Of a stretch of 8,509 nt of DNA, positions 1,600-8,042 are shown in pieces. Each line of letters opens with the position of its first letter. Position 1 is the stretch's first letter. The notes below the pieces were generated by a model. That model was not told where the DNA came from and did not search any database. It worked only from the letters and a program-made list of their open reading frames with translations. The DNA comes from a virus (Duplodnaviria; Heunggongvirae; Uroviricota; Caudoviricetes). Location of the stretch: the IMG/VR virus record IMGVR_UViG_648276669_000009; one strand, given 5' to 3'. Made by a program: the position numbers and the translations under genes.

Positions 1600-2015
1600 C
1601 AACCAGTCAAGGATGTGCATTTAGTGCACCTGAAACCAACAATAAGAAACAATAGGCAGGAATGATTATGGCTTTTTTACTCTTTAAAATCAATCACTCA
1701 GCGAAAGTGAGCAAAAATAATTTGCAATATTGCTTGACTCGCTTTTTTGTCATGGCGTATCGTTTGCCCGCACCTCATAAAGCGGGTGCCGGGTTTAGCA
1801 GCCTGAACAATCAAGCGGGTAGCCGCTATATTTCCGTAATGCGGTTTTTTTGTGCCCGTAATTCCACCCTACCCCGTATTATGGCGGGGCGTAATGGGGG
1901 AGCCTTTGCGCTCGCTGGTTCCTTGATTGCCAGTCTGCTAACCCTGTTACGTCCCGCCACCATGTTTAGCAGCGTGCTGGCGAGACTCCGTAAACTTAAT
2001 CAAGGAGCCGCCAAA

Positions 2016-3185: not shown

Positions 3186-5855
3186 ATGAAATCTGACATC
3201 AGAAAAGAGATTATTAACCGTCTTATCCGTGATTACAACTTCAAAGAAGAAAATAACTACCTCCGGTATGGTGTTTGTCCGCAATGTGGAAAGAAAGAGT
3301 TGTTTACCAGCCTTGAAAGGCCGTACATCGTACACTGCGGGCGTGAAAATAAATGCGGTGCAGACCTGCTGACCAAAGAACTTTACCCGGATGTGTTTTC
3401 ATCATGGTCAGATCGCTATATCAGCACGAAAGACGAGCCATATGCAGCGGCGGCAGCTTACCTTCAGGAGGCGCGCAATATTGCTGTGGAGCCGCTGAAG
3501 GGGGCATTTACTCAGGAGCGATACCAGGACAAGGAAAACGGCGAACAGGCCGCTACTGTGCGTTTTACGCTGGCTGACGGCGTGTGGTGGGAGCGCATCA
3601 TAGACCGACCGGAACGCTTCGCTCGCAAGGCGAATTTTTCCGGCAGCTACAAGGGGTTGTGGTGGGCTTATCCGGGAGCGGATTTAAGCAAGGCCAAAGA
3701 AATCTGGATTTGTGAGGGTATCTTTGATGCCATCAGCCTTAACCAGAATGGCATTGCGGCCGTTTCTGTCATGTCTGCCGTAAACTACCCGGATAAGGCG
3801 CTGGAAGAACTGGCGAAGCTGTGCGGTGATACCCCCCGTCCGGTTATCGTGTGGGCGCTGGATAACGGGCGTGCGGGTGAGCGTTACGCGAAAAAACATG
3901 CAGAACGCAGCGCCGAAGACGGCTGGAGAACGGCAGCGGCGTTACCGGGCGAAAACAACAATAAACGCGACTGGAATGATTTACACATCGCCGGAAAGCT
4001 GCGTGGCCATGATGTGAAAAGATACCGTTATTACGGTGATTTATTGTTGGCGAAATCTCCGAGAGATAAGGCACTAATAATGTTTTCCTTTCGTGAGCGA
4101 AAGGAATTTCATTTTCCCTTTGATAACCGTATTTTCTGGTTCAAGCTGGATATTGAGCGCCATATGAAGGCTGTTGAGCGTGTCATTAATGAGCGAAATG
4201 TTGACGAAGATGAAGCGCGCAAAATTGCACTCAAGGAATCCGGCGCTGTAAAAGAAATCGCAAACTGTAACCCAGTGCCGCTTTATTACATTCGAAACAA
4301 TGATACGGATGAAGCATGGTATTACTTCCGCATTACATTCCCGGATGGTGCTACGGTGAAAAACACCTTTACATCAGGGCAATTAACATCCGCATCTGAA
4401 TTTAAAAAACGTCTGTTGCACGTAGCAAAAGGCGGCATTTATACCGGAACGACTACGCAACTTGACGCATTAATAAAAAATGACCTTCCCGCAATAAAAG
4501 AGGTTATTGGTCAGGATTTTATCGGATACAACAAGGCCATTGGGGCATGGCTGTTTAATGATATTGCTGTTTACAAGGGTAAAACTTATGAAATCAATGA
4601 CGAAGATTATTTTGAAATTGATGGCATAAACGCAAAACCATTAAGCGAAAAACCCACATTACAGATTAACTACAAAAAACCGGATGAATTTACAACGTCA
4701 TGGGTGGAAGATCTCTGGCTGGCTTTTGGCGAAAAGGGAATTATTACCCTGGCTTTCTGGCTGGGTTCGCTGTTCAGTGAACAAATCCGGGATAAAGAAG
4801 AATCCTTCCCCTTCCTTGAAGTCACCGGGGAGCCCGGAACGGGTAAATCAACATTGATTGATTTTTGCTGGCGGCTGTGCGGTCGTGACAACTATGAAGG
4901 CGTAGATCCAACCAAAGGATCAGAGGCGGGCTGGAAGCGCACCTTTGGACAGGTCGCCGGATTACCTGTTGTTCTGATTGAAGCAGACCGGGGAGACAAT
5001 GCGCAAAAAAGAGGTGCGTTTGACTTCGATAACCTGAAAAGCCTCTATAACGGTGGCGGTATCGGTGTTCGTGGGGTTAAGGCCAACAATAACAACACCT
5101 ATGACCCGGATTTTAAGGGCGCTATCGTGATTGCGCAGAATGCGCGGGTAAATGCCTCGCCGGCAATTATTGAGCGCCTGATACGCATATACACCGATAA
5201 AAAACGCCATTCACCTGATACCCGACTGGCGGCGAGACGGCTGGAACTCTACCCCGTCGAGAAGGTATCGGGGTTTATTCACCGGGCGGTAAGTCAGGAA
5301 CGGGCGATTATGCAAACGTTCCTGGAAGTATCGCCCTCTGAAACGGAACGCCTTTGCGGATGCGAAAATATTCGCCATCCCCGTATTGCCAAAAATCACG
5401 CGCAACTTATCGCGCTGGTCAGGGCGCTGAAATGCGTTATCGATATCCCGGATGAATGGCTTGATGCCACATGTCTGGAACTGGAACAAATGGCAACGGC
5501 GCAGGTTAAAGCGGCGGCGGCTGACTTGCCAGAAGTGATGGAGTTCTGGGAGGCGTTCGACTTCCTGGACGGCATAACAAAATACGGTGTAAACCATTAC
5601 GGCAAGGGATGCCGCGAAGGGATTGCTATCAGTATTCCGCAACTGGCACAGGCTGCCGCCATTCACCGCGTGGAGATCCGAACCGATCGCGAAATGATTG
5701 AGTTGCTCGGAGCCGGACGTTCCCGACCTTTGACAGGCCGCAAAACCATTCGTAGTGAGGTGTCCAGACAGGCAAACGCCGGAAAAGGAGTAGCCGAAGC
5801 CAGAGAACCAGAAGTACTGAAATGCAGGATATTCAGTTACAAGGAGGGGGCTTAA
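3186..5855 (+). CDS. Replicative primase-helicase, P4 alpha-like (zinc ribbon + TOPRIM primase + D5/SF3-type P-loop NTPase)
   Basis: 889-aa ORF. N-terminal Cys4 zinc ribbon (CPQCGKK...HCGRENKCG), TOPRIM-like motifs (ICEGIFDAISL; LDNGRAGERY) and Walker A GEPGTGKST. ATG 3186 with SD GGTGGAG upstream is preferred over the GTG at 3162 used by the ORF track. The stop overlaps the integrase RBS. Confidence 0.85.
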   Translation: MKSDIRKEIINRLIRDYNFKEENNYLRYGVCPQCGKKELFTSLERPYIVHCGRENKCGADLLTKELYPDVFSSWSDRYISTKDEPYAAAAAYLQEARNIAVEPLKGAFTQERYQDKENGEQAATVRFTLADGVWWERIIDRPERFARKANFSGSYKGLWWAYPGADLSKAKEIWICEGIFDAISLNQNGIAAVSVMSAVNYPDKALEELAKLCGDTPRPVIVWALDNGRAGERYAKKHAERSAEDGWRTAAALPGENNNKRDWNDLHIAGKLRGHDVKRYRYYGDLLLAKSPRDKALIMFSFRERKEFHFPFDNRIFWFKLDIERHMKAVERVINERNVDEDEARKIALKESGAVKEIANCNPVPLYYIRNNDTDEAWYYFRITFPDGATVKNTFTSGQLTSASEFKKRLLHVAKGGIYTGTTTQLDALIKNDLPAIKEVIGQDFIGYNKAIGAWLFNDIAVYKGKTYEINDEDYFEIDGINAKPLSEKPTLQINYKKPDEFTTSWVEDLWLAFGEKGIITLAFWLGSLFSEQIRDKEESFPFLEVTGEPGTGKSTLIDFCWRLCGRDNYEGVDPTKGSEAGWKRTFGQVAGLPVVLIEADRGDNAQKRGAFDFDNLKSLYNGGGIGVRGVKANNNNTYDPDFKGAIVIAQNARVNASPAIIERLIRIYTDKKRHSPDTRLAARRLELYPVEKVSGFIHRAVSQERAIMQTFLEVSPSETERLCGCENIRHPRIAKNHAQLIALVRALKCVIDIPDEWLDATCLELEQMATAQVKAAAADLPEVMEFWEAFDFLDGITKYGVNHYGKGCREGIAISIPQLAQAAAIHRVEIRTDREMIELLGAGRSRPLTGRKTIRSEVSRQANAGKGVAEAREPEVLKCRIFSYKEGA

Positions 5856-5857
5856 AC

Positions 5858-6861
5858 ATGTCGATCAGAAAACTGGATGATGGGCGATGGTTGCTCGATA
5901 TCAGGCCATGCGGACGTAAAGGAAAGCGCGTCAGAAGAATATTTGACAGAAAATCGATAGCTGTAGCAACTGAACGGTACATCATAGCGAACGCCGAAAA
6001 ACGCGAGTTTATACAGGGCTACCGCGACCGGAGAACCCTCAGCGATTTACTGGAGTTGTGGTGGGTTTATCACGGTCAGCACAGGCGAAAGGCAGGCACA
6101 GATAAACAGCAGCTTGGCAAAATCATTAATGAGCTTGGAGCTGACATGTTTGCGGTAGAGCTCGACAAATTAAAAATCATTGCATGGCGATCGCAGAAAA
6201 TTGCGGAAGGGCTAAAGCCGTCCTCAGCAAACAGATATATGAACAGATTATCTGGGATGTTTACAGCCCTGAAAAAGATCGGTTTGTGGGATGCAGAACA
6301 TCCTGTTCACGGTATTCCTGTTCTTTACGTAAGGCAGCGGGAGATGGCCTTTTTATCAAAAAACGAGGTCACATTGTTGCTTGACAGACTGAATGGAGAT
6401 CAACGAAGGGTTGCGCTCTTATGTCTTTGCACCGGAGCTCGCTGGAGTGAAGCCAGCAGATTACACGGAGAGCAAATAGTTCATAACAGAATCACGTTTC
6501 TGGAAACCAAAAACGGTAGAAAAAGAACGGTGCCTGTGTCGCAGGAAATATGTGCTGCCGTAAAAACAAAAGAAACCGGGCGACTGTTTGATGTGAAGTA
6601 CAGAGAGTTTTGCCGGGCATTAAAAAAATAAAACCCGATTTACCGAGGGGGCAGGCTGCGCATGTATTGCGGCATACATTCGCCAGTCACTTTGTGATGA
6701 ACGGTGGCAACATTCTTGCGCTACAAAAAATCCTTGGGCATGCGACAATTCAGCAGACTATGGCATACGCACATTTTGCACCGGATTATCTGGCAGATGC
6801 CATGAGATTTAACCCGGTAGCCAACATAGTGATCACCGAAGAAAAAGAGCCAGCAGAGTAA
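5858..6861 (+). pseudogene. int: Tyrosine recombinase / integrase, phage P2 Int-like, interrupted by a -1 frameshift in an A7 run (reading frame switches at about 6622-6631)
   Basis: ATG 5858 with SD AAGGAGGGGG upstream. N-terminus MSIRKLDDGRWLLDIRPCGRKGKRVRRIF is colinear with P2 Int as I recall it. Box I TGARWSEASRL lies in the first frame; the HxxR motif (HVLRHTFASHF) and catalytic Tyr region (TMAYAHFAPDYL) lie in the -1 frame (6610..6861). The first frame ends at TAA 6629-6631. Joining the frames at the A-run gives ...RALKKIKPDLP..., with the same spacing as the P2 Int junction. Confidence 0.8.
6622..6631 (+). other. A_AAA_AAA slippery heptamer immediately followed by an in-frame TAA; site of the integrase frame change
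   Basis: Codons TTA AAA AAA TAA in the zero frame. A -1 shift reads ATA AAA CCC (I K P) and continues into the catalytic domain. Could be a 1-nt deletion from an ancestral A8, a homopolymer sequencing error, or programmed slippage. Confidence 0.6.
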
Positions 6862-6890
6862 CCCGCAGAACGCTACATTCACAGCAAAAG

Positions 6891-6918
6891 AGGTCAGTTT
6901 CCCGCTGACCTTTTTTGT
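6891..6918 (+). terminator. Rho-independent terminator downstream of the integrase
   Basis: Stem AGGTCAG (6891-6897) / CTGACCT (6905-6911) with a 7-nt loop, followed by TTTTTTGTT. Lies 30 nt after the integrase stop. Confidence 0.6.
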
Positions 6919-7108
6919 TGGCCAGAACCAACGGTAACAGCAATGCAATGGTGGCCATATTGCAGTGGTGCCGCCATCAATTTTTTGCTCCCCTGATTAT
7001 CAGAAAGAGTCAAATAGTGGTGAGATACATTTTAATTACAGAGAGTTAATGAAAGTGAGATAGAGTGAGTGAGTTTAATTAACATTTTAAAGGGTCGCGC
7101 TAAAGTTT

Positions 7109-7426
7109 GGGGGGGGATGCGCAAAGCGGTTACAACGGTTACAAATTTAAAATCACTTATTTTTGTATTATGTATCAATATATTATAACTGGTCTGATGA
7201 GTTACAAAAGCGGTTACAACGCGGTTACATGTAACCGTTTTGTTAGGTTACAGGCGGTTACAGGTTAAGTTTTTAATTGATTGATAATAAAGTGCTTTTT
7301 GAAACCTGTAACCGTTGTAACCGCAGTGTAACCGCAAAGCGGTTACAAACAATATCCATTAAAATCATGTTGTTAAGTGGTGTTTTTGACTGTTGTAACC
7401 GTTGTAACCGCTTTGCGCACCCCCCA
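7109..7426. repeat. Iteron cluster: at least 13 copies of GGTTACA / TGTAACC in dyad-symmetric arrangement, bounded by a 34-bp inverted repeat and containing AT-rich spacers; putative replication origin and/or recombination arm-site region
   Basis: Perfect heptamers at 7128, 7137, 7212, 7223, 7246, 7256, 7341 (top strand) and 7230, 7307, 7316, 7327, 7394, 7403 (complement), plus degenerate copies. Left arm 7111-7144 and right arm 7393-7425 are reverse complements apart from one extra A at 7117. There is a 16-bp perfect palindrome CGGTTACATGTAACCG at 7222-7237. AT-rich tracts lie at 7145-7200 and 7263-7300. Confidence 0.7.
7173..7185 (+). promoter_or_regulatory. IHF-like site (TATCAATATATTA fits WATCAANNNNTTR) inside the AT-rich spacer of the iteron region
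   Basis: Consensus match read from the sequence. AT-rich DNA produces such matches easily, so this is weak on its own. Confidence 0.3.
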
Positions 7427-7653
7427 CCGGATTATGAGGCAGAGTCCCAAAACAACTGGCCTGACCTCTAACAAAAATGCAACATCAATCATTGATTTTT
7501 TTTGGGGCTGTCAGTCACGGGGAGTTGCCCTGTTGTTTGGCAGAAAAATGAAGTATGTACATGCGCGGCGGGGATGGTAAAAAACGTAATACACGCGGCG
7601 CAGTTGCCATAAAAAATCTCTCAAAAGCACTCTTTTTGACGCTATTGTTCATC

Positions 7654-7680
7654 TGCACAAAAGTGCACAAATTTGCACAA
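7654..7680 (+). promoter_or_regulatory. Three tandem TGCACAA repeats with exact 10-bp phasing (plus a fourth copy at 7746-7752); candidate operator / regulator-binding array
   Basis: TGCACAA at 7654, 7664 and 7674 places the copies on one helical face. They sit inside a 540-bp apparently non-coding region upstream of the ogr-like gene. Confidence 0.35.
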
Positions 7681-8042
7681 TTTTTTAGAGTAACTTTTTG
7701 CCCATCCGGCCCAGTACTGGCGCGCCCGGAGGGCGATTTCGTGCGTGCACAAAAAACGGTGAGTTTTTCGCGCGCAGGTGACGGGGGAACAGCCCGCGTT
7801 TCAGGGGGTAAATTACATCTTTCGCTAAAGACTGTGGGAATGTCCGACCGGGTTAGTTTTATCGCCAGCCAGAGCCGTTCTTACTGCAAGAGAGAACTGA
7901 TACGGGGAATGTGAGGAGTGAGTATGGGAACGGTGTGCCTGCGCGTAATACGCAGCGACCGTTGCGGATTTATTTGATACAGCCAGAGGAGGCGGCGGAA
8001 GATATAATAGGTTAAATTTCACACCAGTAAGAGGAGCGTGAT

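Follow-up and report, generated by a model that had tools for sequence, protein, structure and literature searches.

A probable replication origin of a phage satellite and its closest known systems

Two kinds of characterised origin come closest to the locus described here (those of the Staphylococcus aureus pathogenicity islands, SaPIs, and the ori/crr pair of satellite P4), while the closest described relative, the R3 repeat region of phage phiCTX, is given no function in its record. Our subject is a field of GGTTACA repeats at positions 7109–7428 of an 8,509-nucleotide viral stretch (IMG/VR record IMGVR_UViG_648276669_000009; hereafter "the window," meaning the whole of this stretch). The field lies downstream of an 889-aa primase-helicase gene in an Escherichia coli island that is most likely a satellite of P2-family phages, integrated between gcd and hpt. 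We propose from sequence comparison that the field and a leader of ~190 bp together are most likely the vegetative replication origin of this satellite, because the field architecture follows the primase family regardless of integrase type or position, and because P88, a phage that shares the cohesive-end (cos) region and uses another replicase, lacks the field.

In SaPIbov1 and SaPI1, an AT-rich region downstream of the initiator-helicase gene is flanked by short iterons that point in opposite directions, and Rep, the initiator, is self-loading and carries a winged helix at its C-terminus (PMC9371898). SaPI origins have 6–12 iterons and one central AT region, whereas the window has ~14 iterons in four clusters, separated by three spacers that hold sites of integration host factor (IHF) type, with additional conserved boxes and G/C runs at its outer ends. 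Moreover, primase and helicase are fused here in a single 889-aa protein, unlike in SaPIs, and sequence identity is only 10–12%.

P4 is the system to which the initial annotation of this DNA had compared the field. Like P4, the element appears to be a satellite of P2-type phages with a multifunctional primase-helicase and iterons of octamer or heptamer type; Ziegelin et al. reportedly found in 1993 (work cited in PMC8628076) that the P4 alpha protein binds ori and crr, and binding by the window primase is proposed here. Further P4-like traits are immunity RNAs (C4/isrK), an AlpA protein and a Delta/Ogr protein. The differences are nonetheless considerable: the primase belongs to family phrog_1139 (the phiCTX type) with no P4-alpha match reported, the iteron sequences differ, P4 has two iteron regions 4.5 kb apart where the window has one compact field, and the satellite has its own P2-family capsid gene instead of sid or psu, neither of which was found in the island. 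P4 offers an analogy only; the closest counterpart lies elsewhere, in phiCTX.

The Pseudomonas phage phiCTX (NC_003278) is a complete P2-like phage, whereas the window element is a satellite. Its annotation runs from int through a phage attachment site (attP) core with R1/R2 repeats and a "region containing R3 repeats" with two IHF sites to cos. The R3 region (35100–35390, 170 bp past the attP region) repeats the cluster order and orientation of the window, and both annotated IHF sites occupy the equivalents of window spacers 1 and 2. Clusters and spacers are thus colinear, the gene order (primase, int, field, cos) is shared, and the primases are of the same family (41% identity). Unlike the window, phiCTX has GGTAAT as its iteron, a real attP between int and field, and 4.4 kb between the field and the primase gene.

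Architecture of the GGTTACA repeat field

The heptamer GGTTACA occurs 14 times in the window, with 13 of these perfect copies packed into 7128–7409, against an expectation of 0.84 per window; no shuffle out of 200 reached 14 copies. One-mismatch iterons (e.g., AGTTACA at 7200–7206) supplement the perfect copies. The field is organized as follows:

7109–7144, plus strand: left outer arm, with a G8 run (7109–7116), a TGCGCAAAG box (7118–7126) and forward iterons at 7128–7134 and 7137–7143
7145–7199, no strand: spacer 1, where AT content is highest, holding a perfect IHF-consensus match at 7173–7185 (plus)
7200–7262: inner-left iteron cluster, with degenerate AGTTACA at 7200–7206 and iterons at 7212–7218 (plus), 7223–7229 (plus), 7230–7236 (minus), 7246–7252 (plus) and 7256–7262 (plus)
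7263–7306, no strand: spacer 2, AT-rich, with a perfect IHF-consensus site at 7274–7286 (minus)
7307–7347: inner-right iteron cluster, with iterons at 7307–7313 (minus), 7316–7322 (minus), 7327–7333 (minus) and 7341–7347 (plus)
7348–7392, no strand: spacer 3, with an IHF-like site at 7363–7375 (one mismatch)
7393–7428, minus strand: right outer arm, with reverse iterons at 7394–7400 and 7403–7409, a CTTTGCGCA box (7410–7418) and a C-run

The perfect iterons read ++ | ++-++ | ---+ | --, so that both orientations stand in clusters around AT-rich DNA, as in iteron origins of the SaPI or P4 type, here with three spacers. Within those spacers GC content falls to 12–28% (25-bp windows), and the 8.5 kb as a whole contains just two perfect IHF-consensus matches, one in spacer 1 and the other in spacer 2. 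A head-to-head iteron pair of the inner-left cluster forms CGGTTACATGTAACCG (7222–7237), a perfect 16-bp palindrome that can be read directly from the sequence. On all these points (at least 13 perfect heptamers in ~320 bp, AT-rich spacers, an IHF-consensus match and a perfect 16-bp palindrome) the initial annotation was borne out, with a second IHF site to add.

Its account of the symmetry needs amendment. The outer arms, each of which combines two iterons with a TGCGCAAAG box and a G/C run, are indeed nearly identical inverted repeats, but they span 36 nt rather than 34 and are 94% complementary. Dyad symmetry, described as direct copies on the left and inverted copies on the right, is confined to these arms: the inner clusters (+++- left, ---+ right) keep the same order with the strand flipped, and hence have no rotational symmetry.

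Other features sought in this part of the window were not found. An Rfam scan returned no RNA family in or near the field, its only matches being C4/isrK at 1757–1964, and a promoter scan gave results at chance level. Two open reading frames (ORFs) inside the field, 7107–7268 and 7277–7471, are unannotated in every RefSeq homologue and were taken as spurious.

The same layout accompanies related primases

A common layout (two forward iterons, spacer, three forward plus one reverse plus one or two forward, spacer, three reverse plus one forward, spacer, two reverse) recurs with different iteron sequences in phages, prophages and satellites that bear this primase family, whatever the integrase and wherever it lies. 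The window field shares the features of this phiCTX-type "R3" group (i.e., four clusters, three spacers with IHF-type sites, and inverted arms with a box and a G/C run). In Escherichia phage ESSI2_ev239 the field is built of CGTCACA/CATCACA iterons between the same outer arms and lies ~1.4 kb beyond that phage's own attP.

When species-representative genomes were scanned with a primase alignment, 80 loci were returned. Colinear fields among them use GGTTACA, CGTTACA, TGTTACA, ATTACA, CTTACA, AGGTGA or TTACAA as iteron and occur in Providencia, Proteus, Xenorhabdus, Pectobacterium, Samsonia, Klebsiella, Enterobacter, Arsenophonus, Vibrio, Paraburkholderia, Alkalilimnicola and Mycoavidus. At the loci of Pectobacterium, Samsonia, Providencia, Proteus and Arsenophonus, 150–500 bp separate the primase stop from the start of the field. 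The P2-type integrase of the Providencia, Proteus and Arsenophonus prophages sits on the other strand, 2.5–4 kb upstream of the primase start, and none was found near the Pectobacterium loci.

Fourteen fields align colinearly over ~310 columns and have their orientation strings in common. How many fields are recovered depends on the method: exact tandem 6-mers in both arms found 14 loci, a CGGAAA-box anchor 17, and an nhmmer profile made from the 14 aligned fields 30, the last being full-length fields in 30 of 91 sequences. All 30 are on primase loci and have the same orientation as the primase gene. In most fields the left end consists of a G-run, CGGAAA and two iterons, and the right end of two iterons, TTTCCG and a C-run. 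These boxes change jointly: the pair is TGCGCAAA/TTTGCGCA in the window and some E. coli relatives, versus TTCGGAAA/TTTCCGAA in E. coli locus L005 and other genera. IHF-consensus matches are enriched ~35-fold in the fields (3.2 per kb, versus 0.09 per kb elsewhere) and recur at field offsets of ~60, 160 and 250, and the AAATCA...TTA motif of spacer 3 is kept across genera in the field alignment.

Within E. coli, the field is present in 66 of 5,426 complete genomes, the set to which all E. coli genome counts below refer, and it is single-copy per element with no target-site duplication in its flanks. These data bear on the possibility that the field serves another small protein of the element as an operator, partition or copy-control array, or that it is a miniature transposon with terminal inverted repeats. 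In centromere-like sites, P1 parS being one, IHF sites are likewise flanked by iteron arrays, and the field is bounded by inverted repeats as a miniature transposon would be. However, we found no par genes in the satellites examined, and the primase alone was traced across all field-bearing elements, although this tracing did not include a systematic all-against-all protein comparison. We regard this group of explanations as quite unlikely. A miniature inverted-repeat transposable element was rejected, the field being single-copy in each element, always at primase loci and never outside them, and lacking a target-site duplication.

Field duplication was seen at two loci. L021 (Providencia rustigianii) carries two full tandem field copies and a partial one after the primase gene (12746–13692), and L020 one full copy and a partial one (14206–14336), an arrangement reminiscent of P4 with its separate ori and crr iterons.

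The primase-helicase as proposed initiator

The gene that the field accompanies is located as follows:

3186–5855, plus strand: primase-helicase gene, encoding 889 aa when the start is taken from the RefSeq annotation of homologues

The protein matches phrog_1139 over its full length and is 51% identical to its counterpart in ESSI2_ev239 and 41–45% identical to those of phiCTX and Ralstonia RSY1-like phages. It is predicted to have a DnaG-like primase with zinc finger and Toprim at the N-terminus, a helicase in the middle and a winged helix at the C-terminus. A search with the C-terminal 229 aa alone had returned eight fragments only, and a full-length search was used instead to collect homologues. 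Sequence search of the whole primase against the PDB gave no meaningful match. In the AlphaFold2 model (predicted local distance difference test score 85.5) the C-terminal domain has the topology H-E-H-H-E-E. The best PDB matches to the helicase body are Cch of the staphylococcal cassette chromosome SCCmec (5dgk, E 6e-13) and SaPIbov1 Rep (8tch, E 5e-11), and SaPIbov1 Rep is among the top two structural matches for both the whole primase and the C-terminal domain, where the similarity in fold is modest.

We propose the primase-helicase as the initiator that binds the iterons. It would recognize (C)GGTTACA through its C-terminal winged-helix domain. With the outer arms facing each other and the inner clusters between them, oppositely oriented helicase rings could assemble around the AT-rich spacers, where IHF would bend the DNA and draw the clusters together. 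Spacer 1 (7145–7199), a candidate unwinding element, would then melt, and the enzyme would load itself and prime with its own DnaG-like domain, giving bidirectional theta replication in the manner of the SaPI Rep proteins and P4 alpha. The initial annotation, too, had favored an origin that serves the adjacent primase-helicase, and the comparisons support that suggestion: the layout follows the primase family through phages, prophages and satellites, and the helicase resembles SaPI Rep and Cch.

Variation among close relatives is consistent with such recognition. The first 680 aa of E. coli satellite primases are 93–95% identical, versus only 76–78% for the last 200, and alongside these C-termini the iterons vary between CGGTTACA (the window type), RGGTTACA and GGTCACA; in E. 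coli locus L004 every copy is GGTCACA. Likewise, at five loci of the Providencia–Proteus–Xenorhabdus clade, residues 871/876 are R/K with GGTTACA and K/R with CGTTACA, a switch that holds even though the L021 and L019 primases are 95.8% identical. These residues thus track G versus C at the 5' base of the iteron, in cases that are few and not phylogenetically independent.

Several points weigh against the origin interpretation. The covariation could reflect co-transfer of a block comprising C-terminus and origin instead of direct recognition, and GGTTACA is common to loci whose primase C-termini are only ~40% identical. Adjacency of field and primase gene is not universal, as the two are ~4.4–4.6 kb apart in phiCTX and ESSI2_ev239. 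Most beta-proteobacterial and Xanthomonadales primase loci, and about two thirds of distant loci, had no detected field within 10 kb; fields there may be too diverged, further off, or absent. The field contains no DnaA boxes (window-wide counts are at chance level), a point that we list here although it is neutral for a self-loading initiator. Finally, a literature search found no binding assay, replication assay or initiation map for this type of origin.

If the origin interpretation is right, it supplies a functional reading for a region recorded in phiCTX only as "R3 repeats," and a recognizable signature for the origins of this primase-helicase family, which is found widely among P2-like phages, prophages and satellites of Gamma- and Betaproteobacteria. 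The natural iteron variants, paired with primases that differ mainly in their last 200 aa, offer a ready system for studying origin specificity, and are equally suited to questions of incompatibility between co-resident satellites and helpers. The general view of how such origins work is unchanged: this would be a well-built but ordinary member of its kind.

The leader and the probable end of the upstream operon

Two features lie immediately upstream of the field:

6891–6917, plus strand: GC-rich hairpin AGGTCAG-N7-CTGACCT (listed on the minus strand by the terminator scan), followed by a plus-strand T6 run; likely the terminator of the primase–integrase operon
6916–7108, no strand: conserved leader, ~190 bp, which always accompanies the field

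The leader is 85–97% identical in 64 E. coli genomes, in effect the same set as the field, even where the integrase alleles are only ~51% identical, and it occurs only together with the field. A longer query (~240 bp, 6862–7105) was likewise present in 64 E. coli genomes, in effect the genome set of the field. At E. coli locus L005 the leader follows directly after the primase stop. It also holds GTGAGATA-like direct repeats (at about 7028 and 7055) and a weak promoter-like match at 7079–7106.

The field is most unlikely to serve the neighbouring integrase

Between the primase gene and the leader lies a recombinase gene:

5858–6861, plus strand: second tyrosine integrase of the element, P2 family, with Pfam Int_N and Phage_integrase matches spread over two ORFs

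It starts 3 nt past the primase stop and is split in the window by a 1-nt deletion in an A8 run (A7 at 6622–6628), as judged against an intact 334-aa copy (L001 12958–13962). The field was thus correctly placed downstream of a P2-like integrase by the initial annotation, but this is a second integrase, internal to the element and frameshifted in the window. Over residues 1–321 it is 81% identical in amino acids to integrases of P88-like Peduoviridae, phages that are likely the helpers of this satellite.

Given that the field begins ~250 bp past a P2-family int, the usual place of attP in P2-like phages, and given its IHF-consensus sites and short repeats, it had been suggested as an alternative that the field comprises the arm-type and accessory sites of an attP for this integrase. 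The arm repeats of the closest phage integrases argue otherwise. In phage P88_4B11, whose integrase is the 81% match, attP lies downstream of int and its arm repeats are GTCCAC in a 2 + 2 arrangement; ESSI2_ev239 has six GTCCACA copies beside int; and neither GTCCAC nor GTGGAC occurs anywhere in the window, where no attP for the second integrase was found. Both phiCTX and ESSI2_ev239 carry a separate attP besides the field. In the 66 E. coli genomes the field is unsplit inside integrated elements, ~7 kb from the island ends, and it is at those ends that a different integrase and its own GTGTATCAAT repeat pairs are found.

Field and integrase also vary independently. Four integrase alleles, at most 59% identical, adjoin the same GGTTACA core; in E. 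coli satellites with alleles only 51–59% identical the iteron core stays GGTTACA or GGTCACA; and satellites of E. coli, Kluyvera, Erwinia and Izhakiella have different alleles (50–66% identical) at the same spot. Beyond the satellites, int lies on the far side of the primase gene, ~5–6 kb from the field, in the Providencia, Proteus and Arsenophonus prophages (L019, L021, L027, L030 and L058), and the Pectobacterium loci L014 and L015 have no P2-type int near the field. A field that is not split by integration, has none of the expected arm repeats and does not keep to the side of int is exceedingly improbable as an attP of the P2 type, and on these sequence comparisons we reject that reading. 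The second integrase is an attP-less orphan and no part of the origin. In E. coli Eco_24-2013 the order is primase, leader, field, integrase, with the leader directly past the primase stop, which suggests that int was inserted into an older, pre-existing primase–leader–field module.

The orphan might act on the att sites of helpers. Because an attP-less integrase of helper type is co-transcribed with the primase and abuts the proposed origin in satellites of several genera, we also considered the field as a combined origin and recombination platform, with resolution of replication multimers at the 36-nt arms, or delivery of the integrase along with replication for action on helper prophage att sites; such a dual role seems unlikely. 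A related proposal gives the field to the recombinase alone, as a fimS-like invertible segment or a multimer-resolution site. Long inverted arms around ~250 bp, beside a recombinase gene in the same transcript as the primase, would suit it, as would the continued attachment of int to the field, without attP, in those satellites. Yet a synthetic inverted allele of 7109–7428 was contiguous in none of the 5,426 E. coli genomes (best coverage 64%, in two pieces), the uniform orientation of all 30 profile-found fields with the primase gene is not that of an invertible switch, many prophages have the field with no adjacent recombinase, and the window's own recombinase is frameshifted. The field is very improbable as a recombinase substrate of this kind, and we retain the origin interpretation.

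The cos-like block

On the other side of the field, and outside the proposed origin, is the following region:

7651–7815, plus strand: cos-like block; its homologue in P88-like phages of the P2 family (~82% identity) is their portal-proximal intergenic region

The block begins with three TGCACAA repeats. A 119-aa "hypothetical protein" annotated over it in RefSeq homologues (ORF 7555–7914) is probably spurious. For the cos cut site there are two candidate 19-mers, each of which matches the P2 cohesive end at only 13 of 19 positions when counted by eye; the first of them, at 7562, also fits a 12-nt cos-core motif but for one mismatch.

Proximity to this block raises the question of whether the field is a packaging accessory site comparable to lambda cosB (i.e., terminase-binding repeats with an IHF site) that works with the nearby cos. 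The field is composed of repeats with IHF sites, and ~220 bp separate its end from the cos-like block of the window, as ~170 bp do from cosR in phiCTX. Three comparisons separate field from cos. The cos-like block is present in 1,123 E. coli genomes, versus 66 for the field. P88, which shares the block at ~82% identity but replicates by means of an A-type endonuclease, gave no match to the field even when hits were admitted at E <= 10. At six prophage loci of Pectobacterium, Providencia, Proteus and Xenorhabdus (L014, L019, L020, L021, L030 and L058) a P2-type cos motif lies 2.1–5.5 kb from the field, while in five of these six the primase stop is just 0.15–0.5 kb away. Field-to-cos distance therefore ranges over 0.2–5.5 kb, rather than being short and fixed as for a cosB-like site. 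We judge a packaging role very unlikely; the field keeps company with the primase gene, as an origin for that primase would.

The host island and its relatives

In E. coli MIN10 and strains related to it, the window belongs to an island of ~12–13 kb that is flanked by gcd and hpt. From the gcd end the island encodes a 399-aa integrase, a 350-aa ORF, an AlpA-like regulator, an Icd-like region with C4/isrK-type RNAs, small ORFs, the 889-aa Toprim primase-helicase, the second P2-family integrase, the field, the cos-like block, Ogr/Delta, a 236-aa protein, a P2-family major capsid protein and mazEF, after which comes hpt. Pairs of GTGTATCAAT direct repeats mark both ends (L001 5850–5875 and 18570–18592), adjoining the 399-aa terminal integrase at one end and standing just before hpt at the other; they are likely the arm-type sites of the integrase that actually integrates the element. 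Comparison of the element ends for att repeats, which the initial annotation had put forward, thus yielded repeats beside another integrase. The choice between origin and attP had been expected to decide where the element ends. In integrated elements the field is whole and lies ~7 kb inward from both ends of an island bounded by gcd and hpt, and so marks no element boundary.

Two further regions of the island resemble or depart from P4. Within the Icd-like region (window 1757–1964), Rfam matches to C4 antisense RNA (74.7 bits) and isrK (52.1 bits), with a sub-threshold c4-a1b1 target, point to a probable P4-type RNA immunity in an element whose primase is of phiCTX rather than P4-alpha type. 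Beyond the right end of the window (L001 15774–17755), the island's own major capsid protein, following the 236-aa protein, is 423 aa long versus the usual ~350 aa; in L004 and L005 the capsid pair is placed in the left half of the island. A long capsid protein in an island that has neither sid nor psu may indicate another route to small capsids than that of P4.

A related satellite was also found in a metagenome contig of 12,723 bp (L010) binned as Bacillota. Its ends (1–516 and 12208–12723) repeat 516 bp at 98% identity, the repeat lying within and just past the origin field, as would be expected if the unit were circular or concatemeric and ~12.2 kb long, about a third the size of a P2-like genome.

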